DNA of 64,000 nucleotides from an uncultured Oscillospiraceae bacterium (GCA_964472725.1 CAYYLZ010000001.1:3336-67335); one strand, 5' to 3'. Shown: positions 1,177 to 25,299, counted from the first letter of the stretch. Program-made: numbers and translations. The notes: generated from the sequence alone by a model not told the origin.

Positions 1177-2925
1177 ATGACTTATGATGAATACTGGCAT
1201 ACGCCCAAGGCGAGCAGACCGCCGCCCGAAAATACGGACGAGGAGAAGCTTCGCAAACGTGTTGTGGCAAGGGGCGTGAACCCTTATGAGCGGGAGGATA
1301 TCCCGGAAAGCTTCGAGGTAATAGAGGCACCGGAAGGCTGGGTGACAGCTGCTTTGGGAAGCATACCCAAGAAATTCTGCCCTAAGCAGGCAGTGTGCAT
1401 CTGTTCCCCGACCGGCACCGGCAAAACTACCCTTGTGTCGTATATAACGAAGTTTTGCAGGGGAAATGGCAAGGTTCTTCTGCTTGAACCCAGAACGATG
1501 ATTGCCGAGCAGCAGAAAATGATCTTGAGCACAAGTCTGAAATCTAAGTGGAAAGATGTGAAAGATCCGTTGGCGTTCAGGTACAACGACGAGTATGAGG
1601 ACGTAGGACTGACGGTGATGACGTATCAGAAGTTTGCGGTAAGGTATAAAAGTATGGACCTGAGCAAATACAGCTGGGTCATAATGGACGAGATACATTT
1701 TGTCCATACCGATGTGCTGTTTTCGGCAAATATCGATGGGTTGCTCACAAAGCTGCCGCGGCTTTTTGCCGATGCCAAGCGGGTGTACATGTCGGCCACG
1801 CCGGAGGCGGTGCTGGATGACATCAGCAGGGTAGAGGCGGAGGCGATGAACGAATGCAGCCCCGGAAGGATATGTTATCGCGAAAGCTGCGGTAAGATGC
1901 TATATTACAAGTTTCCAGACCGCCTTGATCGGGTGAAGCTTCATTACTACGGTACTCGGCAGGAAATTGTGGAGCTGGTGAAAAAGTACCCCGGGGATAA
2001 GTTCGTAATTTTTGTAGCGGCGAGGGAGAACGGTGACGGCAGTACAGCCGGTTCGTTTGTCAAGCTGCTTCAGGACGAGGACATAACCGTGGACTACCTT
2101 GATAGGTATAAAAAGAATACACAGACCTGGGAGTACGTTTGTCATATGCAGGATTTTCAGGCGAGGGTGCTTGTGTGTACCAGCGTGCTTGATTGCGGGA
2201 TAAATCTGAAAAATCCTGCCCTGAAGCACATTGTGGTCGAATCAACAGACCGCACGGAGCTTATACAGATGATAGGCAGAAAGCGTCTGAAGGACGGAGA
2301 ACAAGTGAATGTGTATGTTGCAAATGTGGACGAAGACACCGTGGATTACCGGCTGTCGCAGGTGAATGAATGGCTGGAGATCGCTGATGAATGCAGACGG
2401 GCGTTTACAGATGACGCGCATTTTTCACTGCTGTGGCGTGGTTGGACGGACGAGATGCCCGGCAGACCCTTTGAGCATCTGCTTTATCCCACCGGCGGCG
2501 GGCGGCTGAAAGTGAAGCCTGCGGCATATAACACGCTGCGCCGTAGGCAAGCAACGCTGGAGCGCTTGAAGCGTGATTTGGAAACCTATGGGGATTCGGC
2601 GTTTCCTAGGATTGTGCACGAGTGGCTGGGGCAGCCGGAGTCGTATTCGGAGATGAATTGGCTCATCCGTAGTTTATATTCAACGGATAAGAAGGCGCTG
2701 CTGAGCTTCCTAATGGAGCGTGCGGAAGCGCCGATACCCGCTTCGGAGTGGCCGGACGTTCTGCAAACGCTGCGAGAGCTGGTTATCAAGGTTGTGAAGA
2801 AGCAGCACGATGATACCCGTCAGTTAGGCTGGAAAGCCCTCAATGACAGGCTGAGGGAGGCCGAACTGCCTTATGTGATAACACCCGGTGAAAACGAGAG
2901 TTTCATGATACAGCGTGAAGAATAA
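1177..2925 (+). CDS. superfamily 2 (DEAD/DEAH-type) helicase
   Basis: Walker A SPTGTGKTT, DEIH box (MDEIHF), SAT motif, C-terminal QMIGRKR. Start moved to ATG 1177, which follows AGGAGG at 1165-1170. Confidence 0.75.
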   Translation: MTYDEYWHTPKASRPPPENTDEEKLRKRVVARGVNPYEREDIPESFEVIEAPEGWVTAALGSIPKKFCPKQAVCICSPTGTGKTTLVSYITKFCRGNGKVLLLEPRTMIAEQQKMILSTSLKSKWKDVKDPLAFRYNDEYEDVGLTVMTYQKFAVRYKSMDLSKYSWVIMDEIHFVHTDVLFSANIDGLLTKLPRLFADAKRVYMSATPEAVLDDISRVEAEAMNECSPGRICYRESCGKMLYYKFPDRLDRVKLHYYGTRQEIVELVKKYPGDKFVIFVAARENGDGSTAGSFVKLLQDEDITVDYLDRYKKNTQTWEYVCHMQDFQARVLVCTSVLDCGINLKNPALKHIVVESTDRTELIQMIGRKRLKDGEQVNVYVANVDEDTVDYRLSQVNEWLEIADECRRAFTDDAHFSLLWRGWTDEMPGRPFEHLLYPTGGGRLKVKPAAYNTLRRRQATLERLKRDLETYGDSAFPRIVHEWLGQPESYSEMNWLIRSLYSTDKKALLSFLMERAEAPIPASEWPDVLQTLRELVIKVVKKQHDDTRQLGWKALNDRLREAELPYVITPGENESFMIQREE

Positions 2926-2937
2926 GGAGGAAAAATA

Positions 2938-3456
2938 ATGGCAATATTGTATGAAGTAAGAAATGGCAGTAAGGATTATGCACCCCTTGCCCGTGAAAGG
3001 CTGTTTGAGGAGCTTTGCAGTGCAGAACTGAACGGAAATGTGAAATGCGGCGGTTGTTTTATTTCGCCCATTAACCCGGTTGCCAGCATGGATGAAGTGG
3101 CTCAGTTTTACGGTGAAATCGGAGGATTGCAGTTAGTGCATTTCATCGTGGAGTTTGAGCCCATTGAGATGAGAGATCCTGACAACGCGGGCCACATTGC
3201 CAATCTGCTGGCGCAGGATATCGGCGGCAGATACCAGACGTTCTGGGTGCTGCATGATAATGATGAATATCTGCATTTCCATTTTATCATCAACCCCGTC
3301 AGTTACATTGACGGCAGCAGATATCCCGATGCAAATGATTCGAGCAATCTTGAATTTGTGAAGCTCAGGGCGACGCTGGAGGTGATCCTGCGCTGCAACA
3401 GGGTGCGTTCTTTGCAGTATGTTCCCGCCTGCGTAGGTAATATCCCCGCATCATAA
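2938..3456 (+). CDS. short relaxase/mobilisation-nuclease-like protein (MobA/VirD2-type histidine motif)
   Basis: HDNDEYLHFHFIINPVSY resembles the HxDx(n)HxH relaxase motif. AGGAGG lies upstream and the gene is tightly coupled to the helicase. At 172 aa it is probably a truncated or minimal form. Confidence 0.45.
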   Translation: MAILYEVRNGSKDYAPLARERLFEELCSAELNGNVKCGGCFISPINPVASMDEVAQFYGEIGGLQLVHFIVEFEPIEMRDPDNAGHIANLLAQDIGGRYQTFWVLHDNDEYLHFHFIINPVSYIDGSRYPDANDSSNLEFVKLRATLEVILRCNRVRSLQYVPACVGNIPAS

Positions 3457-4326: not shown

Positions 4327-5805
4327 GTGTCTCGCAGCAATGATCATAAATGGTGGGAGTATTGCCAGAATAACTTTAACGAAGGTATAAAATACGGCAT
4401 ATTTCCTGAATTATACGCTTCAGAAGTTCAGTACAAAGCAGCGCTTGAAGAGGCAAAGGAAAGGTGGTCACTTCTACTGGAATATGCTGCAGACAATGGT
4501 ATTAGCCGAGATGAATATGACACTGATGAGGAATTTATAGAAGCTGTTGAAGAAATAAAATATGAGTGGAGATTATCTGCTTTTGGCGGGGCGGAGTATG
4601 GTATATATCCGGAAGATTATGAAACAGAGGAAGAATACCAAAATGCAGTTATGGAGGCAGGAATAAAAGCTATCGATTTAGATGATAGACTTAAATATGC
4701 CAAGATGATTGCAGATAACTACAATATAAGCCAATATTTAGCAAACGGTTTTCCAGACGAGAGAACAAAAGAAGCTGCTAAGCAACTTTGTGCGATTATT
4801 GAAGGAACGGCATTAATTCCTGTTGACACCAATATTGAAGACGAAACAGAGAAATGCCTATTAATACTAAAGGGTGAGAACACCGCGAGCAAATACATAA
4901 CCGTTTGGGATGGAATTCTATTCTCTAAGGCAATAAAGGATAATTTTAATGTAAATGTATGTATAGAAGAAGAGGACAACGAGCAAAACAATGATTTTTC
5001 AGATATTTATCGGTCCCTTGCTGAAGATACTGATATCGCTGTCGAGGTGTGGGCCTGGTTAGTTAAGGAATTTAGTCCATATAAAAAATACATGCGCTAT
5101 AATCAAAGTATTTATAATGAAATTCTTGATAGCTATTCTGATTACCCTGATTCTTTTCTGGAAAAAGCAGCGATAAAACTTGGAGAGGATAAGCTATTCA
5201 GAGAAGAACTCCTTACGAACAACGAAGAATTTCCATATGAAATATATGAATACATTGTAAAGGCTATCGAGCTCAGATTATATAATGTGGCTTCATTAAT
5301 ATTAGAAGCTACTTTAGCAAATCCAATTGCCAGCAGTAAACATCTTAAATATTTAATAAATGATATAATAGACGGGTGTGAAAGCAAGGATCTTGACGGA
5401 AGGCTTATGAGGGCGTTTCAACGTAAACTCATTCCAATTATTGAAAAAGTAAATAATAAACAAATCCAACTACTCTTACCAACGCTTAAAGAAAGAGCGT
5501 CTGAATATCTAGCTGATTATCCCGAACCTAAACCATTGCCTATAACTAATGATATATTAGATGGTATCGAATGTATCGGAGATATTTATACAATTTACTG
5601 TGCAAAATTCCCATTCAGCACGATAAAGTACCACTGCGTAAGTAACGGTGAGAATTATCAAACTGGTGATAAAGTTTTGGCATTGGTAAAAGGAGAAGAA
5701 ATAGTACTTGAAATAGTATCGTGCGAAAAATATTATGCAGATAATTGCCCAATAGAGCCTATTGATGCAGCATTAATTATCCGTAAGATGAAAATAAGTA
5801 TATGA
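4327..5805 (+). CDS. hypothetical acidic protein with internal E/Y-rich repeats
   Basis: GTG start 8 nt after AGGAGG. Three related segments (FPELYASEVQYKAALEEA, EYDTDEEFIEAVEE, YPEDYETEEEYQNAVMEA). AT-rich codon usage. Confidence 0.55.
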   Translation: MSRSNDHKWWEYCQNNFNEGIKYGIFPELYASEVQYKAALEEAKERWSLLLEYAADNGISRDEYDTDEEFIEAVEEIKYEWRLSAFGGAEYGIYPEDYETEEEYQNAVMEAGIKAIDLDDRLKYAKMIADNYNISQYLANGFPDERTKEAAKQLCAIIEGTALIPVDTNIEDETEKCLLILKGENTASKYITVWDGILFSKAIKDNFNVNVCIEEEDNEQNNDFSDIYRSLAEDTDIAVEVWAWLVKEFSPYKKYMRYNQSIYNEILDSYSDYPDSFLEKAAIKLGEDKLFREELLTNNEEFPYEIYEYIVKAIELRLYNVASLILEATLANPIASSKHLKYLINDIIDGCESKDLDGRLMRAFQRKLIPIIEKVNNKQIQLLLPTLKERASEYLADYPEPKPLPITNDILDGIECIGDIYTIYCAKFPFSTIKYHCVSNGENYQTGDKVLALVKGEEIVLEIVSCEKYYADNCPIEPIDAALIIRKMKISI

Positions 5806-5811
5806 AATAAT

Positions 5812-5848
5812 AGGTGAAAAGCAGGATACTTATCCCTGTTTTTCACCT
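5812..5848 (+). terminator. hairpin downstream of 4327..5805 (weak T-tract)
   Basis: aggtgaaaagcagg / ccctgtttttcacct with an 8-nt loop. Confidence 0.45.
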
Positions 5849-5938
5849 GTTTCACTGTTACGGTTGCAAAAGTCTACAATAATCCTCTTATATATGCGCC
5901 GTGAGGAACGGCAGCCATATTTGAAAGGATTTGACAAA

Positions 5939-6286
5939 ATGAGAAGAAAGATTACTGACGAGGAACTGTTGGCGCTTATCGAGAAAAACGAGAATTTTCG
6001 TGGGAAATACGCGGATTTGGTCAGGGTGGAGAAATTCAATGAAGTGTTGGAAATACTTGAATTTGAGCTGGCCGATATGATACCTGTACGGCAGATATCG
6101 GTTGCTCCGGCATCGCCAAAAGAGCGCTGGGGAATGATATACGCAGATATGCCCTGCGCGTTTTTTATGTCGGGAGAAAAACTGGAACTTATGAATATGT
6201 GCATGGCCAAAGCTGATGCGGTGACAATGGCGGTGGTTGATGGACACATACGTATCAGCTTCGGGTTTGACATTTGGCAAGAATAA
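5939..6286 (+). CDS. hypothetical protein (115 aa)
   Basis: ATG 5939 follows gaaagga. Preferred over the antisense ORFs 5830..6273 and 5888..6280, which have serine-rich or odd composition. Confidence 0.45.
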   Translation: MRRKITDEELLALIEKNENFRGKYADLVRVEKFNEVLEILEFELADMIPVRQISVAPASPKERWGMIYADMPCAFFMSGEKLELMNMCMAKADAVTMAVVDGHIRISFGFDIWQE

Positions 6287-6366
6287 AAAATATAAAAATT
6301 GAAAACTATCCTGTTTATAACCGATTTGATGTGATATACTAAAAAAAACTGCTAAGGAGTACGTTT

Positions 6367-7962
6367 ATGGATCGCTATAAAGAGTATTCAGATAAATATC
6401 GTAAGGTAATGGGATTCCTCAATAAGCATTTGCCTGAGACTGTAAAATCTGAGTTTGAAAAATTCTCACTGGCTGCAATTCTGCGTGTCTGGGGCAGTAA
6501 TGACCTTTACTCGCCGGACTATAAGTTTGCATTGAACCTTACATACGGCAAGGAATATAGTGTTGAGCAGATTATTACGGGAATGCGCTGCTGCTTTGAA
6601 CCGGAGCGCGAGATGGCAATTCCCGGCTTTTTTAAACAGCTGGTGAAGTATGACCTCACGATGGGCGGAAACCGCTGTGAGGAGTTTATTTCCCATTTCA
6701 ATGAGTTGTTGGTTTTGGGTACGTTGGTCAACAGAGACTTTACTATAGACGAGTCCAACGCGATAATGGGGATAATAGGACGTCTTGAGCGATACTGCGA
6801 GCTTGAGGGTTTGAAAATAAAGAATCTGTCCGGACCGGGTGCCAAAGTTACACCGCTGCTTAAGGAAAGCTACCTTTCGAAGGTCGAAATTGAAGAGGAA
6901 GAAGAGAAGGACTCCGCGAAGTATAATTCGTGGGAAGTCATTGACAGCATAAAAGAAATTGTTTCTCCCGATTGGGATGGTACATTGCCCGGAGGTAAAG
7001 GAAGTGTAAACGGCGGGAAAAAGGACAAACCTGATATTATCCTGTCCGTTAATATCAATTCATCTGATGACGACGGCGGCAAGGTATCCGCTAGAAAAAA
7101 GCAGGAAGACAAGCTGCCTGAAGCAACGATAGATACAAGTAGCAGTTTTGACGAGCTGATGGATGAGCTTAACAGTCTTATAGGACTTGAGAGCGTTAAA
7201 AAAGATGTTCGCAGTCTAATGAATTTTCTGAAAATTGCCAAAGCGCGAAAAGACCGCGGTATGCAGGTCCCAACTATTTCTTATCACCTTGTATTTACCG
7301 GTAACCCCGGAACAGGTAAAACCACGATCGCTCGATTGATTGCTAAACTGTATTACCACATGGGCCTGCTCCCCAAAGGACAATTTGTCGAAGCTGACAG
7401 AAGCTCACTTGTTGCCGGATATCTTGGACAGACTGCCATTAAGACACAAAAAGTGATAGAGAGTGCTCTAGGTGGCGTGCTGTTCATTGATGAAGCCTAT
7501 GCACTTGCAGGGGAGAAGGACGATAATTACGGCACAGAAGCAATTGAAACCCTCCTCAAGGCAATGGAAGATCACAGAGATGAGCTTGTAGTAATTGTTG
7601 CAGGTTACGATGAACTGATGGATAAATTCATCAATTCCAATCCTGGTTTGGCATCCAGATTCAATAAATATTTTAGATTCCCGGACTATACCGGTGAAGA
7701 GATGCGTGATATTTTCAAGCGTTTCTGCGATACAAACGGTTATTCCATTACTGGTGATATAGAAACGGAACTTCTGAAGTATTTTACCGAACTGTACTTT
7801 GATCGTGGAGAAAACTTCGGTAATGCCAGAACAGTAAGAAATCTCTTTGAACGCGTTATACAGAAGCAGGCAGATAGACTTGCTGTTGCTGACAGTTTTA
7901 CAAATGAGGAACTGGAGTGTATTACTGATTCTGATATCACAACGGCAATAGAAAGTATGTAA
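6367..7962 (+). CDS. AAA+ ATPase of the CbbX/SpoVK type with an unrecognised N-terminal region of about 270 aa
   Basis: Walker A GNPGTGKTT, Walker B VLFIDEAYAL, VVIVAGY and NPGLASRF motifs typical of the family. AAGGAG RBS. Confidence 0.8.
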   Translation: MDRYKEYSDKYRKVMGFLNKHLPETVKSEFEKFSLAAILRVWGSNDLYSPDYKFALNLTYGKEYSVEQIITGMRCCFEPEREMAIPGFFKQLVKYDLTMGGNRCEEFISHFNELLVLGTLVNRDFTIDESNAIMGIIGRLERYCELEGLKIKNLSGPGAKVTPLLKESYLSKVEIEEEEEKDSAKYNSWEVIDSIKEIVSPDWDGTLPGGKGSVNGGKKDKPDIILSVNINSSDDDGGKVSARKKQEDKLPEATIDTSSSFDELMDELNSLIGLESVKKDVRSLMNFLKIAKARKDRGMQVPTISYHLVFTGNPGTGKTTIARLIAKLYYHMGLLPKGQFVEADRSSLVAGYLGQTAIKTQKVIESALGGVLFIDEAYALAGEKDDNYGTEAIETLLKAMEDHRDELVVIVAGYDELMDKFINSNPGLASRFNKYFRFPDYTGEEMRDIFKRFCDTNGYSITGDIETELLKYFTELYFDRGENFGNARTVRNLFERVIQKQADRLAVADSFTNEELECITDSDITTAIESM

Positions 7963-7987
7963 GCAAAAGCGGAGGTGTGACTATATA

Positions 7988-8896
7988 ATGTTGGCTGCCC
8001 AAAACTATTCATATTGGCTGATTGAAGAAATCGACGCTGCACGACTTGCTTTGCTTGGTGTACTGGAAGAGGAAGATAGGCTGCTACTCAGTGAAGCACC
8101 TGCCCTGAAAGCTGAGTACATGGAAAAAATAGGCTCGTATGAGCAGACTGTTATGGAGTCGGAGCTGGAAGCCGCACTACTGGAAAAGAAGCTCGAGCTT
8201 ATAATGAAGGCTATTAATCGTCGTGAGCCTGTGGATATGACAAAAATTGAGTCTGAACTGGAAACCTATAAAAAAGAGCTCTTAAAAGAATTAGATTTGG
8301 GCGATATGAGTTCCGGAAGGCAAAACCGCGAAGAGTGGCCTGAAGAAAAAGAAAAAGAATTCCAGGCTATGTACCGAGCAATTCTCGATCATTTTCACCC
8401 GACATTAAATCCGGATATAACTAAAACGCAGCGTGATTTATATAATAAAGCTGTGGATGCATACAGACGTCATAATTTTGATGCGCTGCAGCTTGTCTAT
8501 GATATGCTTTTTGTAAAGAGATATTTGAATATAACACTTAAGCGCGGTGGATTAGTAGGAAAAGATGATGCGAATTTGGCTGCTCAGTATAAAACTGAGT
8601 ACAGCTTGTCCGATTATTCGTTAGCAGGGGAGTTGTACACATGCTTTGAACGTCTCGAGTCAGATGCAATACTTGAAAAGGAGGCGGCTAAGTACAGGGC
8701 TGAATATAAGCGCAGATACATTGAGATTGAACAGTTGATGGAGAGCTTCCCCTTTAATGCCCGAGACACATTAACTGACCCTTCTAAAACAGATGAATAT
8801 GTGCAGCAGCTGCGTTCGCGTCACGAAAGGAGCAAGTCGGATATAGCGGAGCTGGTAGCGCGTATCGACGAAGCAATGGAGGAAGCCAATGGATGA
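7988..8896 (+). CDS. coiled-coil protein with a J-domain-like segment (HPT in place of HPD)
   Basis: FQAMYRAILDHFHPTLNPDITKTQRDLYNKAVDAYRRHNFDALQLVYD follows the J-domain helix II-loop-helix III pattern. GGAGGTG RBS. Confidence 0.55.
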   Translation: MLAAQNYSYWLIEEIDAARLALLGVLEEEDRLLLSEAPALKAEYMEKIGSYEQTVMESELEAALLEKKLELIMKAINRREPVDMTKIESELETYKKELLKELDLGDMSSGRQNREEWPEEKEKEFQAMYRAILDHFHPTLNPDITKTQRDLYNKAVDAYRRHNFDALQLVYDMLFVKRYLNITLKRGGLVGKDDANLAAQYKTEYSLSDYSLAGELYTCFERLESDAILEKEAAKYRAEYKRRYIEIEQLMESFPFNARDTLTDPSKTDEYVQQLRSRHERSKSDIAELVARIDEAMEEANG

Positions 8897-9338
8897 AGCT
8901 GTAATGCAATATAAGGAAAGTCCTATTAGAAGCGGATTTTTCAACAGTGATCCATTTAAGCGGAAAAAGAAGCTGATCCTTGTTCTCAAGACAGGTATCG
9001 CCGGTCTGCAGTTCAATGTTGATGTTGATACAACGGAAGGGCAGAAACTGCTTGATAGATTGACACCCGGAACGGAACTTAGATTGTATAGAGATGCAGA
9101 TAACGAGTTCGATGAATGGGCGATAGCAGTCGAAACATGCGGCCAGGAAGCGTTGGGGCATATAACCCGCTTCAAAAACGAAACCATTGCACGCTTGATG
9201 GATCATGGTAAAAAATTCGTTGCCTTCGTTGACGAAAAAACAGAAGATGAGGAAGAATACGAAGAGAGAAACATACGGCGAAAAAGAGCTCCTACAGAAA
9301 ATTTTGAATTACCGTTCTCTGTGTATATGGAAGAGTAA
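8889..9338 (+). CDS. HIRAN-domain protein
   Basis: IAGLQF...GTELRLYRDADNEFDEWAIAV...ALGHITRFKNETIARLMDHG matches the HIRAN pattern (L.L.RDP.NPYD.NAI.V...GH...A..L). Overlaps the upstream gene by 8 nt. Confidence 0.7.
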   Translation: MDEAVMQYKESPIRSGFFNSDPFKRKKKLILVLKTGIAGLQFNVDVDTTEGQKLLDRLTPGTELRLYRDADNEFDEWAIAVETCGQEALGHITRFKNETIARLMDHGKKFVAFVDEKTEDEEEYEERNIRRKRAPTENFELPFSVYMEE

Positions 9339-9343
9339 GCAAA

Positions 9344-9386
9344 CAGGACCGTATCCCGGTGCATTAGGGATACGGTCCTGCTTTTT
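9344..9386 (+). terminator. rho-independent terminator of the AAA/J-like/HIRAN operon
   Basis: 14-bp stem caggaccgtatccc / gggatacggtcctg followed by cttttt. Confidence 0.8.
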
Positions 9387-9432
9387 GATTAATGCTGAAG
9401 TTTATTTTGAAGCGATATTGTATTATTTTGTG

Positions 9433-9624
9433 TTATGTTTTAGCTGCGAAAAGTGCAATCCACAGGATAATGCCAACGATGGTCAAAACTATGCCAATGA
9501 CTTTTTCTTTTGTACTGTCCTTGGTGAGCAGATAGATGCCGGCAATAGGCATCAAGACAATTGCAATAAGGACGATAAAAATCGCAAGTGCTCCGTCAGA
9601 ACTGCTATTTTGCTTTCGGTTCAT
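9433..9624 (-). CDS. small membrane protein (63 aa, two hydrophobic segments)
   Basis: AGGAGA then a 6-nt spacer to the ATG at 9624. Sequence MNRKQNSSSDGALAIFIVLIAIVLMPIAGIYLL...VIGIVLTIVGIILWIALFAA. Confidence 0.5.
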   Translation of the reverse strand: MNRKQNSSSDGALAIFIVLIAIVLMPIAGIYLLTKDSTKEKVIGIVLTIVGIILWIALFAAKT

Positions 9625-9726
9625 GGTCATTCTCCTTTGATACGTGATTGAGCTGTGTACCGTTGAGCTAAGCATACACCTACTGCTGTCCATTAATCTG
9701 TACTTTCAATCACGCTTCGGGTGTTT

Positions 9727-9860
9727 TTATATCCCAATTCCCGTTATGTACCCAACTTCAACCTTATGCCCAACCCTTGTCCTATCAACCCGCTCGTATC
9801 TCGCAGTTCGTATGTGACACATCTTCTTGAGAATTTTGGGGAATTATGTCGAAAAAAGAA
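9727..9860 (-). repeat. copy A of the ~134-bp repeated module
   Basis: Embedded ORF 9727..9822 (-) MCHIRTARYERVDRTRVGHKVEVGYITGIGI. The conserved 5' arm at 9823..9860 has an in-frame TAA and the core sequence gacataattcccc. Confidence 0.85.
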
Positions 9861-9905
9861 AGTTTTACATAGATTTTATGTATTATATATGATATGAAAA
9901 GAACG

Positions 9906-9966: not shown

Positions 9967-10509
9967 TTATTGATAGCTTTCGACATAGAGCAAGGTTCGT
10001 CTTGCGGTAGCCAAACTGACCTTATCAGAGGTACCGTGCTTTAGCCATGCATTTACATTGCCTGAGTTTAAATTGAGGTCCGTATAGATACGATAATTAG
10101 ATACACCATATCGCTCTTGTAAACGCATGATTTTTTGGCGCATCAGTTCCTTTGTATGATCGTCTGATTGTCCTTTGTTCTTTTTGCTTTGGAAACTTCG
10201 CCAAACCTTGTGGTATTCTTCAGGAAGCGTAACGGAAGATGTCTCAAACAACTGTGTCATTTCCTCTGTACTATATTGTGAAACCATTTCCTTATACACT
10301 GCAAATAAGTTTGGATCTTTGGTTGCTTTCAGTAGTACTGCTTGCTTTCCGGAATAAAGAGCATATAGGAGAAGCGGTTCTCTGAGCCTGGGACTATCGC
10401 TGCTTGCTTCTTTGGCTAGTTTGTATAAACTGGTTGTATTGGACTTGGATAACTGTTTTACATACTGTGTTAGAAAACCTTTGAATGTTAGTTCTCGCAT
10501 GGACACCAC
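9967..10509 (-). CDS. putative HTH-containing partner protein (antitoxin-like) of the adjacent nucleotidyltransferase
   Basis: The C-terminal YGVSNYRIYTDLNLNSGNVNAWLKHG...SLATARR looks like an XRE-type HTH. Overlaps the upstream gene by 22 nt. Confidence 0.45.
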   Translation of the reverse strand: MVSMRELTFKGFLTQYVKQLSKSNTTSLYKLAKEASSDSPRLREPLLLYALYSGKQAVLLKATKDPNLFAVYKEMVSQYSTEEMTQLFETSSVTLPEEYHKVWRSFQSKKNKGQSDDHTKELMRQKIMRLQERYGVSNYRIYTDLNLNSGNVNAWLKHGTSDKVSLATARRTLLYVESYQ

Positions 10510-11027
10510 CTCTCTACATATGCCTTGTAACTATCAAGAAATTGTCTGTACTGGAATTCGTTTAAGGCGGAAGCTTTTGCTTCGTCGTCTGCTGTTGCCA
10601 AATGCTCCAGGCGCTTCCAATCAATTGCTGCGAGCACCTTGGAATCGCTGATGTCCTGAATATCTGTTGTTCTCGCAGAGTACAGCTTTGCTATCACAAT
10701 ATCTTCTAAAGATGCTGTGTAGAAATCAATCCGGCGACCATTGGTGAGTATCGGCACGAGTCTGTCATCATAGTTATATGGGAAATTGTTGACAAACGTT
10801 TTCACTCGAGTATTAATATCATATTTTTCGAGTAGGTCAACAATCTCGGGGGAGACATCCAGCGCATCAATATCATGTGTAGCGCGAGTTATTGTTTCCA
10901 ACAAAATCAGTGCGCTACCGCCAACGATAACCATTCTAAACCTACGGTCATCATCGAAAAGCAAATCGGCATCCTCGTCCAAGCGTGCCAAACGCTTCAT
11001 CAAATCTTCTTTGAAATAACTACTCAT
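10488..11027 (-). CDS. minimal nucleotidyltransferase-fold protein (DUF6036/AbiEii-like)
   Basis: VGGSALILL...THDIDAL matches the GS...D.D nucleotidyltransferase signature. Confidence 0.6.
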   Translation of the reverse strand: MSSYFKEDLMKRLARLDEDADLLFDDDRRFRMVIVGGSALILLETITRATHDIDALDVSPEIVDLLEKYDINTRVKTFVNNFPYNYDDRLVPILTNGRRIDFYTASLEDIVIAKLYSARTTDIQDISDSKVLAAIDWKRLEHLATADDEAKASALNEFQYRQFLDSYKAYVERWCPCEN

Positions 11028-11138
11028 CGCTTAAAATCCTTTGAAATAAATAATACTATTAATCAATCATTATTATATGTGCTTTTTGGTAGTCTGTCAA
11101 TAGCGCTATTATAAAGCAATTCAAAAACCGCGGTGTTA

Positions 11139-11272
11139 TTATGTTCCAACCCCCACTATGTACTCTATCTCAACCTTATGCCCAGCCCTTGTCCTGTCAA
11201 CACGGTCGTATTTCGCAGTTCGTATGCGACACATCTTCTTGGGAATTTTGGAGGATTATGTCAAGGAAGAAA
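11139..11272 (-). repeat. copy B of the repeated module
   Basis: Embedded ORF 11139..11234 (-) MCRIRTAKYDRVDRTRAGHKVEIEYIVGVGT. The 5' arm contains gacataatcctcc. Confidence 0.85.
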
Positions 11273-13865: not shown

Positions 13866-13997
13866 TTACACCCCCAGCCCCACTATGTACCCAACTTCAA
13901 CCTTATGCCCAACCTTTGTTCTATCCACCCGCTCATAGTTCGCAGTTCGTATGGGTGTCATCTTCTTGGGAATTTTGGAGGATTATGTCGAAAGAAA
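13866..13997 (-). repeat. copy C of the repeated module
   Basis: Embedded ORF 13866..13961 (-) MTPIRTANYERVDRTKVGHKVEVGYIVGLGV. 5' arm present. Confidence 0.85.
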
Positions 13998-16186: not shown

Positions 16187-16320
16187 TTCAACACATCAGC
16201 CCAACTATGTACCAAACCTCAGCCTTATGTCCAACCTTAGTTCTATCAACCCGCTCGGATCTCGCAGTTCGTACGTGACACATCTTCTTGAGAATTTTGG
16301 GGAATTATGTCTGAAGAGGA
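16187..16320 (-). repeat. copy D of the repeated module
   Basis: Embedded ORF 16187..16282 (-) MCHVRTARSERVDRTKVGHKAEVWYIVGLMC. 5' arm present. Confidence 0.85.
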
Positions 16321-16528
16321 AATATTCGATAACGTGTATTATATGTTCTTTATTTTGAAAAATGTTGTTTTGCATTATGGCAGGAGGTTGTCTTGATTTA
16401 AACCGAAGAACGCCGTATAATAATATTGACACTTATATTCAAATGTAGAAATGACTTGCAATTTTATGTAACATATGTAGGGCGCGGATTATATACGAGT
16501 GAAATGGTACTGGGATAAGGAGAATACT

Positions 16529-18803: not shown

Positions 18804-18832
18804 AGTGTAGCATATTTTGTGAGGGGTGTCAA
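18804..18832 (-). promoter_or_regulatory. sigma-A-type promoter for the tracrRNA
   Basis: Minus strand: TTGACA, 17-nt spacer, TACACT, about 7-8 nt before the anti-repeat. The -35 box ends 1 nt from the cas9 ATG. Confidence 0.5.
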
Positions 18833-18833
18833 C

Positions 18834-21800
18834 ATGGAAAGAAAAAGTAATTATTATCTGGGGCTGGATATAGGAACGGATTCGCTTGGATATGCTGTGA
18901 CAGACGGAGAATATAATATTTTAAAATTCAACGGAGAGCCAATGTGGGGTGTACATCTCTTTGAAGAAGCGGGTACAGGCGAGGAACGCCGGAACTTCCG
19001 TACTGCGCGCAGACGGCTGGATCGCCGGCAGCAGCGAGTGGATTTGGTTCAGGAGATTTTTGCAAAAGAAATATACAAGGTGGATCCGGCATTTTATATA
19101 AGGATCGCGGAAAGCCATAAATTTTCGGATGACAGCGAATACGGAGTAGCGTTGTTTCAGGATTCGGACTATACCGATGGACAATATTTACGCGATTACC
19201 CGACAATTCACCACTTGATCTGCGAACTGATGGACAACTCTGCAACCCATGATGTGCGGCTGGTATATCTAGCTTGTGCGTGGCTGGTAGCTCATCGAGG
19301 TCACTTCCTGAAAGAGGTGTCGGTTGATAATCTGGAAGAACTTACTGATCTTTCTTCTGTTTACCGGGAATTTATGGAATTCTTTGAGGGAGAAAAACCG
19401 TGGGGAGAGATTAATGCGGAAACCTTTGGAGAAGTTTTGAGAAAGAAAATCGGTAAAGCTGCAAAATACAAAGAACTGAGCCGACTGATTTATGGAAACG
19501 CTAAAGTTTCAAAGGAAGTGTCGGAAGAATTCCCTTACAGCCGGGAAGGTATACTCAAGCTTCTTTGCGGTAGCCAATATGCTGTCAGTGCTCTGTTCGA
19601 CAACAAGGAGTACGTGGAGCTGGGTTCGATTTCGCTGGATATGAATGACGAAAGCTTTGACGCACTCAGGTCTAATATTGGCGATGATGGAGAGCTTCTT
19701 GTTAAGCTTAAAAGTATTTATGACTGGACCGTGCTGTGCGATGTGCTTAGAGGCAATACATTTATATCTCAGATGAAGGTCGAGGACTACGAACAGCATC
19801 GTAAGGATCTGCAGCAGCTTAAGCGCCTGGTGAAAAAGTATATTCCAAAAGAATATAACGAAATATTCCGCGTTTCCGTAAAAGGTCTGACCAACTACAC
19901 TGCATACAGCGGCAATTTCCGGAATACTGCAGCAGCGGAGGAGAACAGCAGGACGACTCAGGAGGAGTTTTGCAAATACATATTGAAGAAGTTCGAGTTT
20001 GTAATGCCCCAGCCGGAGGATGAGCAGGAACTGACAGTTATGCGTGAGCGGCTTGATTTGAAGAAATTCATGCCAAAGCAGGTCAACGGAGATAACCGTG
20101 TTGTACCTCAGCAGGTGTATTATGCGGAACTGCGCCGCATTCTGGAGCAGGCTGCGAACTATCTGCCATTCCTTACGGAGAAGGATGCCGACGGATTGAC
20201 CCCAGCGGATAAACTATTGTCTGTGTTCAGCTTTCGCGTTCCGTATTTCGTTGGCCCGCTGAATAATGCCAGTGAACATGCGTGGATAAGGCGCAAGGCT
20301 GAAGGCAGGATACTTCCCTGGAACTTCGAGGAAAAAGTGGACCTGGATGCAAGCGAACAGGCATTTATTGCCCGCATGACAAATAAATGCACCTATCTGC
20401 CGGGGGAAGACGTACTGCCGGAAGTGTCTCTCTGCTATGAACGATACAAGGTGCTCAACGAGATAAACACAATAAAAATCAACGGCAGAAGTCTGTCTGC
20501 AGAGGCCAAGCAGGGAATATTCAACGACCTTTTCATGAACATGAAAAAGGTGACCCCGAAGCGCATCAAAGATTACCTGCTCTCCAATAATTATTGTACG
20601 GCTGAGGATTTGAATACATTCAGCGGATTGGACGAAACAGTGAAGTCAGGCCTTGCCATGCACAGTGCTTTTGCTCGGCTTATGAACGATACGCTGACTG
20701 AGGAGGATGTAGAAAGAATAATACGACGGGCTGCCTGCTGTGAAGATAAGGGCAGACTCCGGCTCTGGTTGAAAAGGGAATTCCCCGCACTGTCCGAGGA
20801 AGACAGGCGGTATATAGCAGGGCTGAAGATCAAGGGCTTCGGCAGACTGTCCAAGAAATTCCTTGCCGGTATACTCGGCGTGGAGAAATCCACAGGGGAG
20901 GTCAATACCATTCTTGGCTGGATGTGGGAACACAACCTCAACCTCATGCAGCTGCTGTCCGAACAATTTGATTTCGCTGAGCAGATAGAAAAAATACGGG
21001 CGGAATACTACGATGCGAATAAGCTGGCGCTGAACGAGCGCCTCGATAGTATGTATATCTCAAATTCTGTCAAACGTCCTATTATCCGTACTATGGATAT
21101 TGTACGCGAGGTAGTCAAAGCCAAGGGCTGTCCGCCGAAGAAGATATTCGTGGAAATGGCTCGCGGTGGAAATGCGGAAGAAAAAGGAAAACGCACTAAA
21201 TCCCGCTATGAGCAGCTGTGCGAGCTGTACGCGAAAGTGGATACAGAGGATGTGCGCCAGCTTCAGGCAGAGCTGGAGGAAATGGGGGAGGCTCGGGATA
21301 GCCGGCTGCAGAGTGAGCGGTTGTTCCTGTATTTCCTGCAGCTGGGCAAGTGTATGTATAGCGGGGAGGCGATAGACCTTTCAAAGCTTGCGGGTGAGAC
21401 TTATAATGTGGACCATATCTATCCGCAGTCCAAGGTCAAGGACGACAGTATCGTTAATAATAAGGTTCTTGTAAGAAGCGAGATAAACGGGAGTAAGAAG
21501 GATGATTATCCCATTGCTGCCGATATCCGCAGAAAAATGGGTGCGCAATGGAAGCTGCTGCGGGAGCTTGGGCTGATAAACGAGGAAAAATATCGCCGCC
21601 TGACACGCGATACCCCCTTTGATGAAAATGAGGAATGGGGCTTTATCAACCGTCAGCTGGTAGAGACCCGCCAGTCTACCAAGGCCGTGACCACCCTGCT
21701 GAGCGAAAAATATCCCGAAACAGAGATAGTTTATGTCAAAGCCGGGATGGTTTCTGAGTTCCGACAGGACTTTGATGTGCTCAAGTGCCGATCTGTGAAT

Positions 21801-22901
21801 GACCTGCACCATGCAAAGGATGCCTATCTGAACATCGTGGTCGGAAATGTATACAGTGAGCGATTTAATCATCAGTGGTATTTGGCAAACAGAAATAATT
21901 ACTCCGTAAAGACCAAAGCGGTTTTCACTAATCCGGTGACTGTGAACGGAGCAGTTGTCTGGAACGGAAAAACCGCGCTTGAAAAAGTTATTAATACCGT
22001 ACGGAAAAATAATGCTGTGCATTTGACCCGATACGCGTTTTGCAAGGCGGGAGGCTTCTTTGACCTGCAGCCGAGAAAAGCCGGAGAAAATCTGGTGCCG
22101 CGGAAACTTGGGCTTCCGGCGGAAAAATATGGAGGATACCGAAAGCCTGCCGTGTCATTCTATATTCTTGTGGCCTTTACGGTGAAAAAGAAGCGGGAGG
22201 TAATGTTCGTGCCTATTGAGCTGCACAGCAGGCAGTTTATGAGGGATGAACTTTTGGCCCGGGGGTATGTTTGGCGGCAGGCGGAAAAAATAATCGGGAA
22301 AAGCGTAAGTGATTTTGAACTGCCGCTGGGACTGAGACCCATAAAAATAAACACCATGCTTGAAGCAGACGGTTACCGCATGACACTGTCGGGCAAATCT
22401 GGTGGAGGAAAGAGTGTTATCGTCTCGGGTATGGTGCCGCTGATAGTGGGAGATAAATGGGACGGCTATATCAAACGGCTGGAGCGCTTTGCGGAGAAGA
22501 AAAAGCAGAATCCGGCTATGATATGGTCAGAGAAATATGACAAAATATCACCGGCAGAGAATATTGAGCTTTACGATACGCTCTGCGGTAAGCTGGAAAA
22601 TAATATGTACCGTAAGCGCCCAGCCAATCCGATAAAGGATTTGAAAAACGGCAGAGAGAAGTTCCTTGAGCTCGATATTGCGCGGCAGGTACACTGTTTG
22701 CTGCAGATGGTTGCTCTGTTCGGAAGAACCGCGAGCGGCTGTGATCTGAGCGGGGTCGGCGGTAAGCCGCGCGCCGGAGCTACTACAAGATCTTCGAGCT
22801 TGAGCAATTGGGCAAAGGAATACAAGGATGTACGTATCATAGACCAATCGGCGGCCGGTCTGTTTGAAACCCGATCCGTGAATTTGCTGGAGCTGTTATG
22901 A
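18834..22901 (+). CDS. cas9: Cas9 (type II-A), 1355 aa
   Basis: RuvC-I YYLGLDIGTDSLGYAV, RuvC-II IFVEMARG, HNH YNVDHIYPQSKVKDDSIVNNKVLV, RuvC-III NDLHHAKDAYLN. Start at the ATG after GAGGGG. Confidence 0.95.
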   Translation: MERKSNYYLGLDIGTDSLGYAVTDGEYNILKFNGEPMWGVHLFEEAGTGEERRNFRTARRRLDRRQQRVDLVQEIFAKEIYKVDPAFYIRIAESHKFSDDSEYGVALFQDSDYTDGQYLRDYPTIHHLICELMDNSATHDVRLVYLACAWLVAHRGHFLKEVSVDNLEELTDLSSVYREFMEFFEGEKPWGEINAETFGEVLRKKIGKAAKYKELSRLIYGNAKVSKEVSEEFPYSREGILKLLCGSQYAVSALFDNKEYVELGSISLDMNDESFDALRSNIGDDGELLVKLKSIYDWTVLCDVLRGNTFISQMKVEDYEQHRKDLQQLKRLVKKYIPKEYNEIFRVSVKGLTNYTAYSGNFRNTAAAEENSRTTQEEFCKYILKKFEFVMPQPEDEQELTVMRERLDLKKFMPKQVNGDNRVVPQQVYYAELRRILEQAANYLPFLTEKDADGLTPADKLLSVFSFRVPYFVGPLNNASEHAWIRRKAEGRILPWNFEEKVDLDASEQAFIARMTNKCTYLPGEDVLPEVSLCYERYKVLNEINTIKINGRSLSAEAKQGIFNDLFMNMKKVTPKRIKDYLLSNNYCTAEDLNTFSGLDETVKSGLAMHSAFARLMNDTLTEEDVERIIRRAACCEDKGRLRLWLKREFPALSEEDRRYIAGLKIKGFGRLSKKFLAGILGVEKSTGEVNTILGWMWEHNLNLMQLLSEQFDFAEQIEKIRAEYYDANKLALNERLDSMYISNSVKRPIIRTMDIVREVVKAKGCPPKKIFVEMARGGNAEEKGKRTKSRYEQLCELYAKVDTEDVRQLQAELEEMGEARDSRLQSERLFLYFLQLGKCMYSGEAIDLSKLAGETYNVDHIYPQSKVKDDSIVNNKVLVRSEINGSKKDDYPIAADIRRKMGAQWKLLRELGLINEEKYRRLTRDTPFDENEEWGFINRQLVETRQSTKAVTTLLSEKYPETEIVYVKAGMVSEFRQDFDVLKCRSVNDLHHAKDAYLNIVVGNVYSERFNHQWYLANRNNYSVKTKAVFTNPVTVNGAVVWNGKTALEKVINTVRKNNAVHLTRYAFCKAGGFFDLQPRKAGENLVPRKLGLPAEKYGGYRKPAVSFYILVAFTVKKKREVMFVPIELHSRQFMRDELLARGYVWRQAEKIIGKSVSDFELPLGLRPIKINTMLEADGYRMTLSGKSGGGKSVIVSGMVPLIVGDKWDGYIKRLERFAEKKKQNPAMIWSEKYDKISPAENIELYDTLCGKLENNMYRKRPANPIKDLKNGREKFLELDIARQVHCLLQMVALFGRTASGCDLSGVGGKPRAGATTRSSSLSNWAKEYKDVRIIDQSAAGLFETRSVNLLELL

Positions 22902-23782
22902 GCTGGAGAACCGTTGTTATCAGCAGCAGATGCAAGCTGGATCTGAAAATGGGATATATGGTGGTGCGCGGCGAGGATGTGAAGCGAATATTTCTGGATG
23001 AGATAGCTATCCTTGTTATAGAAAACCCGGCGGTATCTCTTACAGGCTGTCTGTTGGAGGCTTTGGTGTCGCAGAAAATACGTGTGATTTTCTGCGATGC
23101 CAAACGCTCGCCTATGGCGGAGCTTGCTCCCTATTACGGCGCCCATGATTCGCCGCGTAAGATAAGAGCTCAGATGTCGTGGGGCGCGGAGCTCAAGCGT
23201 ATGGTGTGGGCCGAGATAGTTTCGGAGAAAATTCGAAGACAAGCGGAATTTTTGGAGGAACTGAAACGGGCACGGGAGAGTGCTATGCTGCGGGAATATA
23301 TTGCGCAAATACAGCCCGGAGACGCAACGAACAGGGAGGGACACGCGGCAAAGGTATATTTCAACGGCATTTTCGGAATGGACTTTACCCGCAGCGAGGA
23401 TACGGCTGTGAATGCCGCGCTGAACTATGGCTATTCCGTTATCCTTTCGGCTTTCAACAGGGAAATAACTGCCTGCGGTTATATAACTCAGTTGGGAATA
23501 TTCCATGACAATATGTTCAATCATTTCAATCTCAGCAGCGATCTTATGGAGCCTTTCCGCATTCTAATAGACAGAGTGGTGGTGAAGATGCCGCTTGAAA
23601 AATTTGAAACGGTGCATAAGCGTGTTTTGTGGGATGTGCTAAATAAATATGTTCTTATTGAGGGGAAGAGGCAGACGGTGCTAAACGCAATAAAAATATA
23701 TACCAAGAGCGTGTTTGATGCGCTGAATGATGGAGATTTGGCAAATATAAGGTTTTACCGAATTATTAATGACGACATATGA
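22898..23782 (+). CDS. cas1: Cas1
   Basis: Type II Cas1-like sequence ([22 protein letters not shown]). 4-nt overlap with cas9. Confidence 0.9.
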
Positions 23783-24099
23783 GTTATAGATTTATGCGAG
23801 TGCTTGTGTTTTTTGATCTGCCTACAGAGACCCTTGAAGACCGCCGAAATTACAGCCGGTTCAGAAAGCTGCTTTTGAAAAACGGATTTTTGATGCTTCA
23901 GGAATCGGTCTATTGTCGTATGCTGCTCAATGGAACAGCGGAAAAGACTGTACTGGAGCTGATAAGAAAATACAGCCCTCCTGCGGGTCTTGTTCAGGTG
24001 CTCACGGTTACTGAAAAGCAATTTGCCAAAATGGAGTATATTACCGGAGAGGCGCAGCATGAGGTAGTGGATACGGATGAAAGGTTGATAGTGCTTTGA
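23779..24099 (+). CDS. cas2: Cas2
   Basis: [13 protein letters not shown]...ESVY pattern. 4-nt overlap with cas1. Confidence 0.85.
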
Positions 24100-24770
24100 A
24101 GTTTGCTTATCCCGAGATCAGCGGTGTTTTCGAGGTGTATAAGCCTTATGCAAATACGCTGGTAATAGAAAATCAAAAATTGTTCTCCGCTCTGATTCGT
24201 GATATTTATTTGGGGATTTGCGGTATGGAAACAGGATGCGTGCTGTCGCTGCAGAATACTCCTGTTTCCATGGCGAAGCACTGTGAACTGATAAGCAGCT
24301 TTGTGGATTTTGACCTTAATCGCAAGCCACTCCTGAATAAAATAATAGCTGGTCTGGAGGAGAAAGCGCTTGAGCCGCAGAACTATACGGAGACAATGCA
24401 GCTTTTAAGCGACATAGAGAACAGCATTGACAAATGGGCCTTCGATTTTCCGTGCGATATTGTTTCCTCGAAAATAACGGTAGCCAACATGCTGAAGTCT
24501 GTAGGCTTGGAGCTGCGGCAGGAGTACAGCGGTATTAATGCCCTTGGAGAAAAGCTGCTTGACTATATGGAGCTTGTCCGTGAGTTTGAGCGGGATAAGC
24601 TGTTTGTGCTGGTTGGTCTTCGCAGTTATCTGCCGGATGATGCCGCGGAGCGCTTTTTAAACTCGGTTGTTGCCCATGAATTTCACGTCATGCTCATCGA
24701 CAGTCGGGATCATCCACGGCTGTCGGCGGAGCGACGAATTACGGTGGATGAAGATTTATGTGAATTTTAA
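24096..24770 (+). CDS. csn2: Csn2 (type II-A signature protein)
   Basis: About 224 aa, in the position after cas2 and before the array. TTG start overlaps the cas2 stop. N-terminal NTLVIEN and general Csn2 likeness. Confidence 0.7.
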
Positions 24771-24892
24771 TTGACAATTTATATGTTTTGATGAATAATG
24801 AATGTAGGCTTACACAGAGCCCCTGCGGATGTACTTCTCTACCTCGCTGGCATCGTAGACCGGTTGTTTCGGATGTTGGTCCGGGATTTGAG
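24771..24892 (+). promoter_or_regulatory. CRISPR leader
   Basis: Lies between the csn2 stop and the first repeat. The degenerate repeat is at the far end, which fits this orientation. Confidence 0.5.
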
Positions 24893-25126: not shown

Positions 25127-25157
25127 TGCGCTGAACTATCTGAAGTTCAGCGCATTT
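25124..25157. terminator. bidirectional hairpin between the array and the ssp gene
   Basis: aaatgcgctgaact / agttcagcgcattt. Confidence 0.75.
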
Positions 25158-25196: not shown

Positions 25197-25299
25197 TTAC
25201 ACCACCAGCCCCGCTATGTACTCAACCTCTACCTTATACCCAACTTTAGTCCTATCAACTCGTTCGTATCTCGCAGTTCGTACGGGTGTCATCTTCTTG
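25197..25299 (-). repeat. copy E of the repeated module (lacks the 5' arm; fused in frame to ssp)
   Basis: The last 31 codons of the ssp ORF (MTPVRTARYERVDRTKVGYKVEVEYIAGLVV) are the module reading frame. Similarity to other copies begins at caagaagatg. Confidence 0.8.

Follow-up and report, generated by a model that had tools for sequence, protein, structure and literature searches.

An AAA+, J-Like and HIRAN Three-Gene Module of Clostridia: A Defence-Island Candidate Related to a Two-Gene J-Domain and HIRAN Pair

Introduction

The HIRAN domain of HLTF binds the 3' end at stalled forks (cited in PMC8262856 and PMC11706625). Its segment RDPNNPYD forms the 3'-OH pocket, as established by the HLTF structures (Kile 2015 and Hishiki 2015, cited in PMC8262856). 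For proteins that contain HIRAN, a role as antitoxin towards HipA-type kinases has been predicted, and sensing of phage DNA ends has been proposed for HIRAN in the HipN/HipL Hip kinase systems (PMC8262856); HIRAN domains of prokaryotes, stand-alone bacterial proteins among them, have been called uncharacterised (PMC11090510). Among chaperones, the host J-protein DnaJ is required for sensing by bNACHT25 (PMC12169576). Here we describe an operon in which a stand-alone HIRAN gene follows the genes of an AAA+ ATPase and a J-like coiled-coil protein. It lies in a stretch of 64,000 nucleotides from an uncultured Oscillospiraceae bacterium (GCA_964472725.1, CAYYLZ010000001.1:3336-67335), the whole of which is called the window below.

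An initial annotation, made from the sequence of the window, had read this region as a unit of four co-oriented genes (a 115-aa protein, the ATPase, the J-like protein and the HIRAN protein) and had proposed a nucleic-acid-sensing conflict system. The four co-oriented open reading frames (ORFs), the 8-nt overlap of the J-like and HIRAN genes (8889-8896), an HPT motif and a strong terminator are all present in the sequence. The conserved unit, however, comprises three genes rather than four, and we refer to it as the trio.

Results

Conservation and Distribution of the Trio

Fetched loci were searched with hidden Markov models made from our own alignments of the trio proteins. When one genome was scanned for each of 185,579 species, 37 loci were returned, 34 with the trio and all 34 in Clostridia. 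The hosts belong to Oscillospiraceae, Lachnospiraceae, Acutalibacteraceae and Ruminococcus; a single cultured isolate, Gemmiger formicilis DFI.6.10, is among them. Every complete locus from the 34 Clostridia genomes has the genes for the N-domain-AAA+ ATPase, the J-like protein and the HIRAN protein in this order on one strand, and the same order and strand were found on further metagenome contigs and on one IMG/VR contig; the 2.9 million viral contigs searched gave 1 trio match only. Six contigs that were read individually have an identical layout (ATPase of 516-531 aa, 302-aa protein, HIRAN protein of 147-149 aa), and the gene junctions on individually read contigs mostly overlap, by 4 and 8 nt. 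At 90% identity the family of the 302-aa protein falls into 28 clusters, with a length of about 300 aa in nearly all of them. The AAA+, J-like and HIRAN genes form a real conserved three-gene module. The initial annotation had named lack of conservation as a unit as the finding that would tell against its proposal; the trio recurs as a unit in the 34 Clostridia genomes and on the metagenome contigs.

The 115-aa protein had no match in Pfam, NCBIfam, PHROGs or PADLOC. A homologue of its gene was seen only in loci L013 and L014, whose DNA is 91.8% identical to the window over the block 5774-9830, and is absent upstream of the trio in every other locus read. Because it recurs only in these two loci, the 115-aa gene is an accessory and not a member of the conserved module.

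Two loci hold additional genes. L035 has two tandem N-domain-AAA+ genes (61-1500 and 1515-3020) upstream of the J-like and HIRAN genes, and in L047 a gene on the minus strand (7157-9388) for a 743-aa protein with weak HIRAN similarity (5e-7) directly adjoins a trio, as a second HIRAN-containing gene there.

The 302-aa J-Like Protein

A profile of 27 members of the 302-aa family (alignment A1) was compared with all PDB sequences. Five matches were obtained at an expectation value (E) of <=10, each to a J-domain protein and with the HP motifs aligned, the best being 7tgh_J1 (E 0.0053). Throughout A1, H137 and P138 are invariant and the third position is T, Q, S, A or E. The motif region of the protein of the window includes DHFHPTLNPDITKTQRDLYNKAVDAYRR, and the protein contains FHPTLNPDITKTQRDLYNKAVDAYRR. 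At the profile level it has J-domain helices II-IV, and it has HPT at the position of the His-Pro-Asp of J domains. The AlphaFold2 model is all-helical (predicted local distance difference test, pLDDT, 78.7), with an N-terminal helix of 70 residues; helices 119-136, 146-160 and 164-175 are confident and correspond to J-domain helices II-IV, and residues 177-209 are disordered (pLDDT <50). As a single sequence the protein did not reach E<=1 against Pfam DnaJ. Because a Foldseek search with the whole model returned only long-helix and coiled-coil noise, the J-domain call rests on sequence profiles, by which we judge the 302-aa protein to be a genuine J-domain derivative.

From its N-terminus the protein consists of a coiled-coil helix (residues 7-77), the J-derived core, a clade-specific insertion and C-terminal helices (Table 1). 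The insertion, which follows the J core and is about 40 residues long, is aligned to a gap in the family that lacks the ATPase, described next. It ends in an invariant D209-Y210-x-L212-A213-x-x-x-Y217-x-x-F220 (DYxLAxxxYxxF; A1), and the insertion may serve as a docking site for the ATPase.

A Two-Gene Family and the Absence of the HPD Aspartate

Three distant loci of the genome scan have a shorter J homologue followed directly by a HIRAN gene, without an ATPase gene. Their hosts are a Methanomethylophilaceae archaeon, Treponema primitia ZAS-10 and Fenollaria timonensis, and HPD is present in all three J proteins. A metagenome scan seeded with these three proteins gave 136 relatives, 80 of which were kept. 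Nearly all of the 80 loci are pairs of a J gene (~268 aa) and a HIRAN gene (~132 aa), and no SpoVK-type AAA or N-domain was found near any of them, about 39 having more than 1.7 kb of upstream sequence. A profile of 30 AAA-less proteins (alignment A8) matched about 33 PDB entries for J domains, E. coli DnaJ and CbpA among them, with a best E of 1.2e-5, and the homology of A1 and A8 extends along the whole protein (hhalign probability 99.96%, E 4.7e-39). The trio is an elaborated form of this more widespread two-gene J-domain and HIRAN pair. The J-like call of the initial annotation is borne out by the A1 profile, which matches J-domain structures only, and by the stronger matches of the sister family; HPT does stand in place of HPD, as H137-P138-T139. 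The description "J-like plus coiled coil" is incomplete, the protein being a member of the wider two-gene family.

The two forms differ in the third position of the motif. Among 78 readable motifs from the AAA-less metagenome loci, found with two search patterns one of which favoured HPD, 71 are HPD and 7 are HPE. In 40 distinct AAA-linked proteins from the genome scan, which was unbiased with respect to the motif, the third residue is Q in 15, A in 13, E in 6, T in 2 and K, G or S in one each, and HPD does not occur; the protein of locus L039, the sole such case among the 40, has no HP motif. Relaxed constraint on the aspartate that activates Hsp70 coincides exactly with the presence of a dedicated ATPase. 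From this correlation we infer that the private AAA+ protein has taken the place of Hsp70 as partner. The general statement that J domains recruit Hsp70, on which the initial annotation drew, is probably inapplicable to the trio, since the HPD aspartate is absent in 40/40 AAA-linked proteins and kept by the AAA-less pairs. No Hsp70 gene was found among the commonest flank families of either the trio or the two-gene loci.

In about 10 related AAA-less loci (L052 11220-11855, L091, L087, L085; Fenollaria-like) a co-oriented gene for a protein of ~211-228 aa follows the HIRAN gene. With only these ~10 related loci it was rejected as a universal third gene of the two-gene form; it may be an optional third component. 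At the T. primitia locus (L051), where assignments were made by eye from translations, the pair (9977-11178) adjoins three features (5698-9116): an N-terminal fragment resembling a type I restriction subunit, a gene for a 367-aa helix-turn-helix protein with a HEIGH metallopeptidase motif, and a toxin-like 114-aa gene that overlaps the latter.

The HIRAN Protein

The 149-aa protein matches PF08797 (HIRAN) with E 1.6e-9 and 37.9 bits, against a gathering cut-off of 24.7. A profile of the HIRAN family compared with the PDB matched 3k2y, the stand-alone bacterial protein lp_0118 (2e-17), and the HIRAN domain of HLTF (6e-7). R68, N72 and D75 are invariant in 26 members, within a motif R(E/D)xxNxxD that aligns with the RDPNNPYD segment of HLTF. 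The AAA-linked HIRAN proteins have an extra N-terminal segment of the LRSGFF type and a basic insertion (R..RxRAPTEN) before the last strand, both of which the HIRAN proteins of the two-gene form lack. Phages also have HIRAN families, as matches in PHROGs show.

The ATPase and Its N-Terminal Domain

The ATPase matches PF00004 (AAA) with E 2.8e-19 over residues 309-439 and AAA_lid_6 with E 7e-16. Over residues 258-530 its best NCBIfam matches are SpoVK, EccA and CbbX (1e-71 to 1e-84; SpoVK 1.7e-84), and it reaches the equivalog cut-off of none of them (SpoVK TIGR02881, 283 of 423 bits; CbbX TIGR02880, 241 of 459; EccA TIGR03922, 265 of 467). The Walker A motif GNPGTGKT, the Walker B motif LFIDEAY and a loop GYLGQT, at a position which we take to be that of the pore loop in CbbX-type ATPases, are invariant in an alignment of seven orthologues (A2). 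Because these three elements are invariant, the ATPase is plausible as an active translocase.

No Pfam match was found for residues 1-257, nor for any of 29 members of the N-terminal domain family. The AlphaFold2 model of this domain has seven helices (pLDDT 92.6), and its conserved residues are W42, N45, Y52, P86, F88, an NGDFT motif (NRDFT in the window) and E129. Foldseek gave no matching fold in the PDB (best E 0.46, TM below 0.31) or among the BFVD viral models (best E 1.1). Searches with the full ATPase were dominated by 750-aa tandem-AAA proteins. An exhaustive HMMER search of 1.84 billion representative proteins with the N-domain returned 60 clusters only, in which it stands at the N-terminus, excepting fragments and three repetitive, probably spurious matches, and all full-length members checked are SpoVK-type AAA+ proteins of ~480-660 aa. 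The N-domain is without known relatives and private to this module, which agrees with the initial annotation in calling the N-terminal region unrecognised.

A TerB-like N-domain, an idea taken from NGDFTxEE, was unsupported by Pfam, by the PDB profile search (weak UBA, E 0.85) and by Foldseek. P0173, P0190 and P0193 were rejected as N-domain proteins, being repetitive and of low complexity with spurious Pfam matches. In another protein, P0204 (351 aa), the first ~84 residues of the N-domain are joined directly to a J-like protein with HPQ. P0204 could have arisen naturally, by fusion or deletion, or else be a chimera of the assembly; were it real, it would be further evidence that the ATPase and the J-like protein cooperate.

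Genomic Neighbourhoods

Gene order in the trio is conserved across unrelated neighbourhoods, one of the features looked for in a defence-island candidate, taken here as a conserved operon enriched beside known defence genes. At individual loci the trio lies between major facilitator superfamily (MFS) transporters and a LysR regulator; after a HEPN-SNF2 helicase and a HATPase/SACS protein; after methyltransferase, SNF2 and PglZ genes (BREX-like), on a stretch resembling an integrative and conjugative element (ICE) with RepA_N, ParB and a type IV secretion system (T4SS) coupling protein; beside a serine recombinase and a transposase fragment; and after McrBC and before a Y-family polymerase (IMS). 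Four individually read trio loci are defence or mobile-element contexts. In the IMG/VR locus Vsr and C5-methyltransferase genes adjoin the trio, and phage structural genes are absent. In the window the trio is part of an array of cassettes that are toxin-antitoxin (TA)-like, HipA-like and CRISPR-Cas9.

We also surveyed 93 large proteins encoded within ~4.5 kb of the trio at about 30 dereplicated loci. Of the Pfam families, ResIII, Helicase_C and DEAD are the most frequent, and Macro, SNF2, SMC_N, BrxL and C5 methylase also occur. Strong PADLOC matches (E<=1e-10) obtained more than once are type IV restriction endonuclease (x3), HKD-Snf2 (x2), MkoA/MkoC of Mokosh (x2), PbeA (x2) and type I restriction endonuclease (x2); the others are BrxC, BrxL, DrmA, PDC-S41, Cas10, DndC/DndA and a type II methyltransferase. 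At least ~18 of the 93 flank proteins have such matches, a count for which no matched background was computed; by our own estimate of the expectation it lies far above the few per cent expected genome-wide. The loci read individually and the flank survey agree in placing the trio in variable neighbourhoods, often of defence genes or mobile elements.

The Window Locus and Its Cassette Array

The features of the locus are collected in Table 1. The terminator behind the trio was read directly from the sequence: a perfect 14-bp stem (9344-9357 / 9367-9380) with a 9-nt loop is followed by CTTTTTG. An automated terminator scan, with a loop limit of 8 nt, had missed it. A small ORF converges on the hairpin, which may stop transcription from both directions; L013 has an 81-aa gene called where the window has this ORF.

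Table 1. Positions of the trio, its domains and adjoining features in the window.
Feature	Position	Strand	Remarks
115-aa ORF	5939-6286 from ATG (open frame 5864-6286)	+	accessory, outside the conserved module
N-domain-AAA+ ATPase gene	6367-7962	+	531 aa
ATPase N-terminal domain, ~residues 1-148	6367-6810	+	seven helices, conserved
ATPase linker, ~residues 149-255	6811-7131	+	variable, charged, low-complexity; indels in A2
AAA+ module with AAA_lid_6 lid	7132-7962	+	SpoVK/CbbX/EccA clade
J-like coiled-coil gene	7988-8896	+	302 aa
J-like core, residues 116-177	8333-8518	+	helix II, H137-P138-T139, helices III and IV
Clade-specific insertion, ~residues 178-221	8519-8650	+	specific to the AAA+-linked clade
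Stand-alone HIRAN gene	8889-9338	+	149 aa
HIRAN domain, ~residues 34-122	8988-9254	+	Pfam
Intrinsic terminator	9344-9387	+	between the trio and the convergent small ORF
Convergent 86-aa ORF	9433-9693	-	two hydrophobic segments; within the block common to the window and L013
Repeat copies	9745-9861, 11151-11272, 13872-13995, 16197-16322, 25205-25300, 26725-26847	+	six copies

Gene cassettes in the window are separated by a direct repeat of ~120 bp, present in six copies that are 83-96% identical to their consensus. The copy at 9745-9861 bounds the trio block on the right, and the trio is at the left end of the array. The block is followed by cassettes with a DUF6036 (nucleotidyltransferase) pair, with DUF4160/DUF2442/DUF2806 and with small genes; a further cassette has a 260-aa gene with a HipA-like kinase, Cas9-Cas1-Cas2-Csn2 and a CRISPR array, and another a 327-aa gene. 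The type II-A CRISPR-Cas locus (18819-25127) is complete, with Cas9 (1360 aa), Cas1, Cas2 and Csn2, and forms one cassette between two repeat copies; its array (24893-25127) has only 4 repeats, of 36-37 nt, and 3 spacers. Homology with L013 stops at repeat position ~98, and because this is the point at which the copy at 25205-25300 is truncated, a recombination junction is suggested. The ~120-bp repeat has no Rfam match and no tRNA, and no other fetched locus contains it. The idea of a hairpin of the attC type or of a structured RNA was rejected, the repeat folding worse than shuffled sequence on both strands and showing no covariation. The repeat may mark a cassette array driven by recombination.

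Upstream of the trio, a 172-aa ORF (2938-3456) encodes no more of a MobA/VirD2 relaxase than its N-terminal nuclease domain (6.6e-16) and is a truncated mobilisation gene. The setting described in the initial annotation, among TA and CRISPR cassettes and next to a mobilisation remnant, is therefore accurate: the relaxase fragment, DUF6036, DUF4160/DUF2442, the HipA-like gene, Cas9-Cas1-Cas2-Csn2 and the CRISPR array are all there. Just upstream of the relaxase fragment is a DEAD/ResIII helicase gene (1129-2925). A 492-aa acidic ORF (4327-5805) has a GC content of 0.35, against 0.43-0.51 around it. It had no match in Pfam, NCBIfam, PHROGs or PADLOC, and the only relative seen is a weak, partial one in L013 (219 aa, 6e-10). 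DNA near-identical to the locus was not found in plasmid and phage collections.

Discussion

The loci display a constant architecture, conservation of the trio, identifiable domains, a link between motif and ATPase, and a habitat that is often one of defence genes or mobile elements. For function and effector, which we infer, we tentatively favour, at somewhat less than even confidence, a candidate anti-phage or anti-plasmid module in which the HIRAN protein senses 3' ends and the J-like protein acts as an adaptor to the private AAA+ protein instead of Hsp70. HIRAN would bind free 3'-OH ends, such as those of phage or plasmid genomes, of rolling-circle or recombination intermediates, or of broken forks. 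The coiled-coil J-like protein would serve as the adaptor between this sensor and a protein remodeller powered by ATP. That remodeller would be the host Hsp70 (DnaK), recruited through HPD, in the two-gene form; in the three-gene form, with the HPD aspartate lost and DYxLAxxxYxxF gained, a dedicated AAA+ unfoldase with its private N-domain would replace Hsp70. The ATPase could extract or unfold proteins of replication, recombination or packaging at the marked DNA end and so block propagation of the invading DNA, the effector being a protein remodeller and not a nuclease or membrane toxin. The broader claim, that this is a chaperone-type immune module of a new kind, with a HIRAN DNA-end sensor wired through a J adaptor to an unfoldase effector and the client switched between Hsp70 and the private AAA+ protein, we hold to be unlikely as it stands.

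Several points weigh against a defence module of this kind. The defence association is descriptive, its counts coming from aggregate tables without a matched background, and some trio loci are found among ordinary genes (MFS, LysR, Mfd, iron-containing alcohol dehydrogenase, glycosyltransferases). The flanks of the two-gene pairs are mostly ordinary as well, with only a few genes of MmeI-type restriction-modification (RM), RhuM/PDC-S05 and PDC-S23. No effector of the toxin or nuclease kind can be recognised in the trio, an unusual lack among defence systems. Defence is deduced from genomic association, and a physical interaction of the three proteins from synteny only; the docking motif and the direction of evolution, by gain or loss of the ATPase, are guesses. 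Because HPE occurs both in AAA-linked proteins (6/40) and in AAA-less ones (7), the motif split is a relaxed constraint and no clean switch. The AAA-less group of the unbiased scan has 3 members, and the sequences are phylogenetically related. Of the nucleic-acid-sensing conflict system put forward in the initial annotation, the conserved trio and its frequent place among defence genes or mobile elements stand; the defence part is a candidate reading based on genomic association, beside a less probable role in stress or DNA repair.

Such a role, in tolerance of DNA damage or rescue of forks, is an unlikely alternative. As with HLTF/Rad5, the HIRAN protein would recognise the 3' end where a fork has stalled or reversed, and the J-like protein and the ATPase would remodel replisome or recombinase proteins there, giving accessory stress tolerance. 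The experimentally established role of HIRAN is 3' end binding at stalled forks (HLTF), one trio directly precedes the IMS gene mentioned above, Mfd/TRCF lies beside two trio loci, and repair would suit the missing toxin or nuclease. Against this, the distribution is very patchy (37 loci in 185,579 species representatives) and the neighbourhoods are variable, often inside clusters of RM, BREX, DISARM or CRISPR genes and mobile elements. The loci read show no linkage to recA, lexA or uvr genes, and the Mfd adjacency, at 2 loci, may be incidental. We rate slightly lower a TA or abortive-infection system working by chaperone hijack, in which the J protein or the ATPase is a toxin that mis-activates or titrates chaperones and is restrained by HIRAN until DNA ends appear, or else an addiction system of a mobile element. 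It would account for a core of two small overlapping genes in scattered, variable contexts, much like TA pairs, for the many TA-like cassettes around the window trio, and for the antitoxin role predicted for HIRAN-containing proteins with HipA-type kinases (PMC8262856). No evidence points to toxicity of either protein, however; the 302-aa protein lacks an enzymatic domain, the aspartate needed to act on DnaK is gone from the three-gene form, and there is no DNA-binding autoregulator of the sort typical of type II TA.

The mobile-element contexts bring up a further reading, which we consider improbable: a helper in establishment, replication or anti-defence that acts on the DNA ends of its own element, for example after conjugative entry. 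The trio on the ICE-like stretch, the one beside a serine recombinase, the relaxase fragment near the window trio and the HIRAN families of phages would fit a helper. Most trio loci, though, have no conjugation or replication genes within 10 kb, the single match among the viral contigs has RM-type genes and no phage genes around it, and a cargo position beside defence genes is typical of defence cargo. Far less probable again is an ordinary SpoVK-like ATPase of sporulation or housekeeping with two accessory proteins. SpoVK (stage V sporulation protein K) is indeed the best NCBIfam match of the AAA+ module, the hosts are Clostridia, and in L013 a small acid-soluble spore protein gene is nearby; yet the SpoVK score is far under its equivalog cut-off, the N-domain occurs in only ~60 clusters of the 1.84 billion representatives, the module is in very few genomes and at variable positions, and the J and HIRAN core is also found in Treponema, Fenollaria and a methanogenic archaeon.

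If the broader claim of a chaperone-type immune module were true, the trio would be the first defence system that kills by ATP-driven removal of proteins from invading DNA ends, and a natural case in which a J domain has been redirected to an AAA+ machine and away from Hsp70. If the trio is a defence system, it has no nuclease, NADase, membrane or kinase effector, and a protein-remodelling ATPase aimed at DNA ends would be an effector principle new to the immunity of prokaryotes. A function would also be supplied for stand-alone bacterial HIRAN proteins. The two-gene form (HPD, no ATPase) and the three-gene form (no HPD, private AAA+) are a natural experiment in J-domain rewiring, and the ATPase N-domain, with a high-confidence model and no relatives in Pfam, PDB or BFVD, is a new domain. 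The trio can be tested in the cultured host G. formicilis DFI.6.10.

Comparison with Known Systems

PADLOC (PADLOC-DB of 2023) was run on all four proteins of the operon and on the 492-aa ORF. No system of the 2023 models was matched by the trio, which gave only generic AAA and HIRAN-domain matches, so the view that it corresponds to no named system holds at the level of these models. Full-text literature searches found no description of a module of J and HIRAN, with or without AAA, and the trio is apparently undescribed.

The best PADLOC matches of the ATPase are IetA (9.3e-14), DolB of Dodola (2.8e-7) and TRIP13 of CBASS (5.5e-6). They cover only the generic AAA core (residues ~269-453), and what these systems appear to have in common with the trio is the defence-island habitat; the trio operon has no IetS protease, DolA or HORMA partner. 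Membership in IetAS (Gao 2020) was rejected on the AAA-core-only match, the missing protease gene and an NCBIfam IteA score of 43 bits against a cut-off of 510. With SpoVK, CbbX and EccA the ATPase shares a single AAA+ module, the AAA_lid_6 lid, Walker A and B, and a Y-x-G motif resembling a pore loop. It differs from them in scoring below all three equivalog cut-offs, in its partners, and in having its private ~150-aa N-terminal domain where EccA has tetratricopeptide (TPR) repeats.

The HIRAN protein matches PDC-M03B in the C-terminal HIRAN part (2e-9, profile positions 131-218 of 232) and lacks the M03B N-terminal part. This is a HIRAN-domain match only, and the other four submitted proteins (115-aa, ATPase, J-like and 492-aa) match no PDC-M03 model, including M03A, so PDC-M03 was rejected too. 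Unlike HLTF/Rad5 and HipN/HipL, the HIRAN protein of the trio is not fused to a helicase or kinase but is paired with a J-like protein.

The J-like protein has in common with DnaJ/Hsp40 (PF00226) helix II, the HP loop and helix III at the profile level, and its sister family has the canonical HPD. It lacks the glycine/phenylalanine (G/F) region, the zinc finger and the client-binding domain of DnaJ/Hsp40; its core is embedded in long coiled-coil helices, and its gene always adjoins a HIRAN gene. Pam16/Tim16 are J-like proteins that likewise lack HPD. What is new in the trio, as a candidate operon of defence islands, is the combination of known superfamilies with one domain that has no known relatives.

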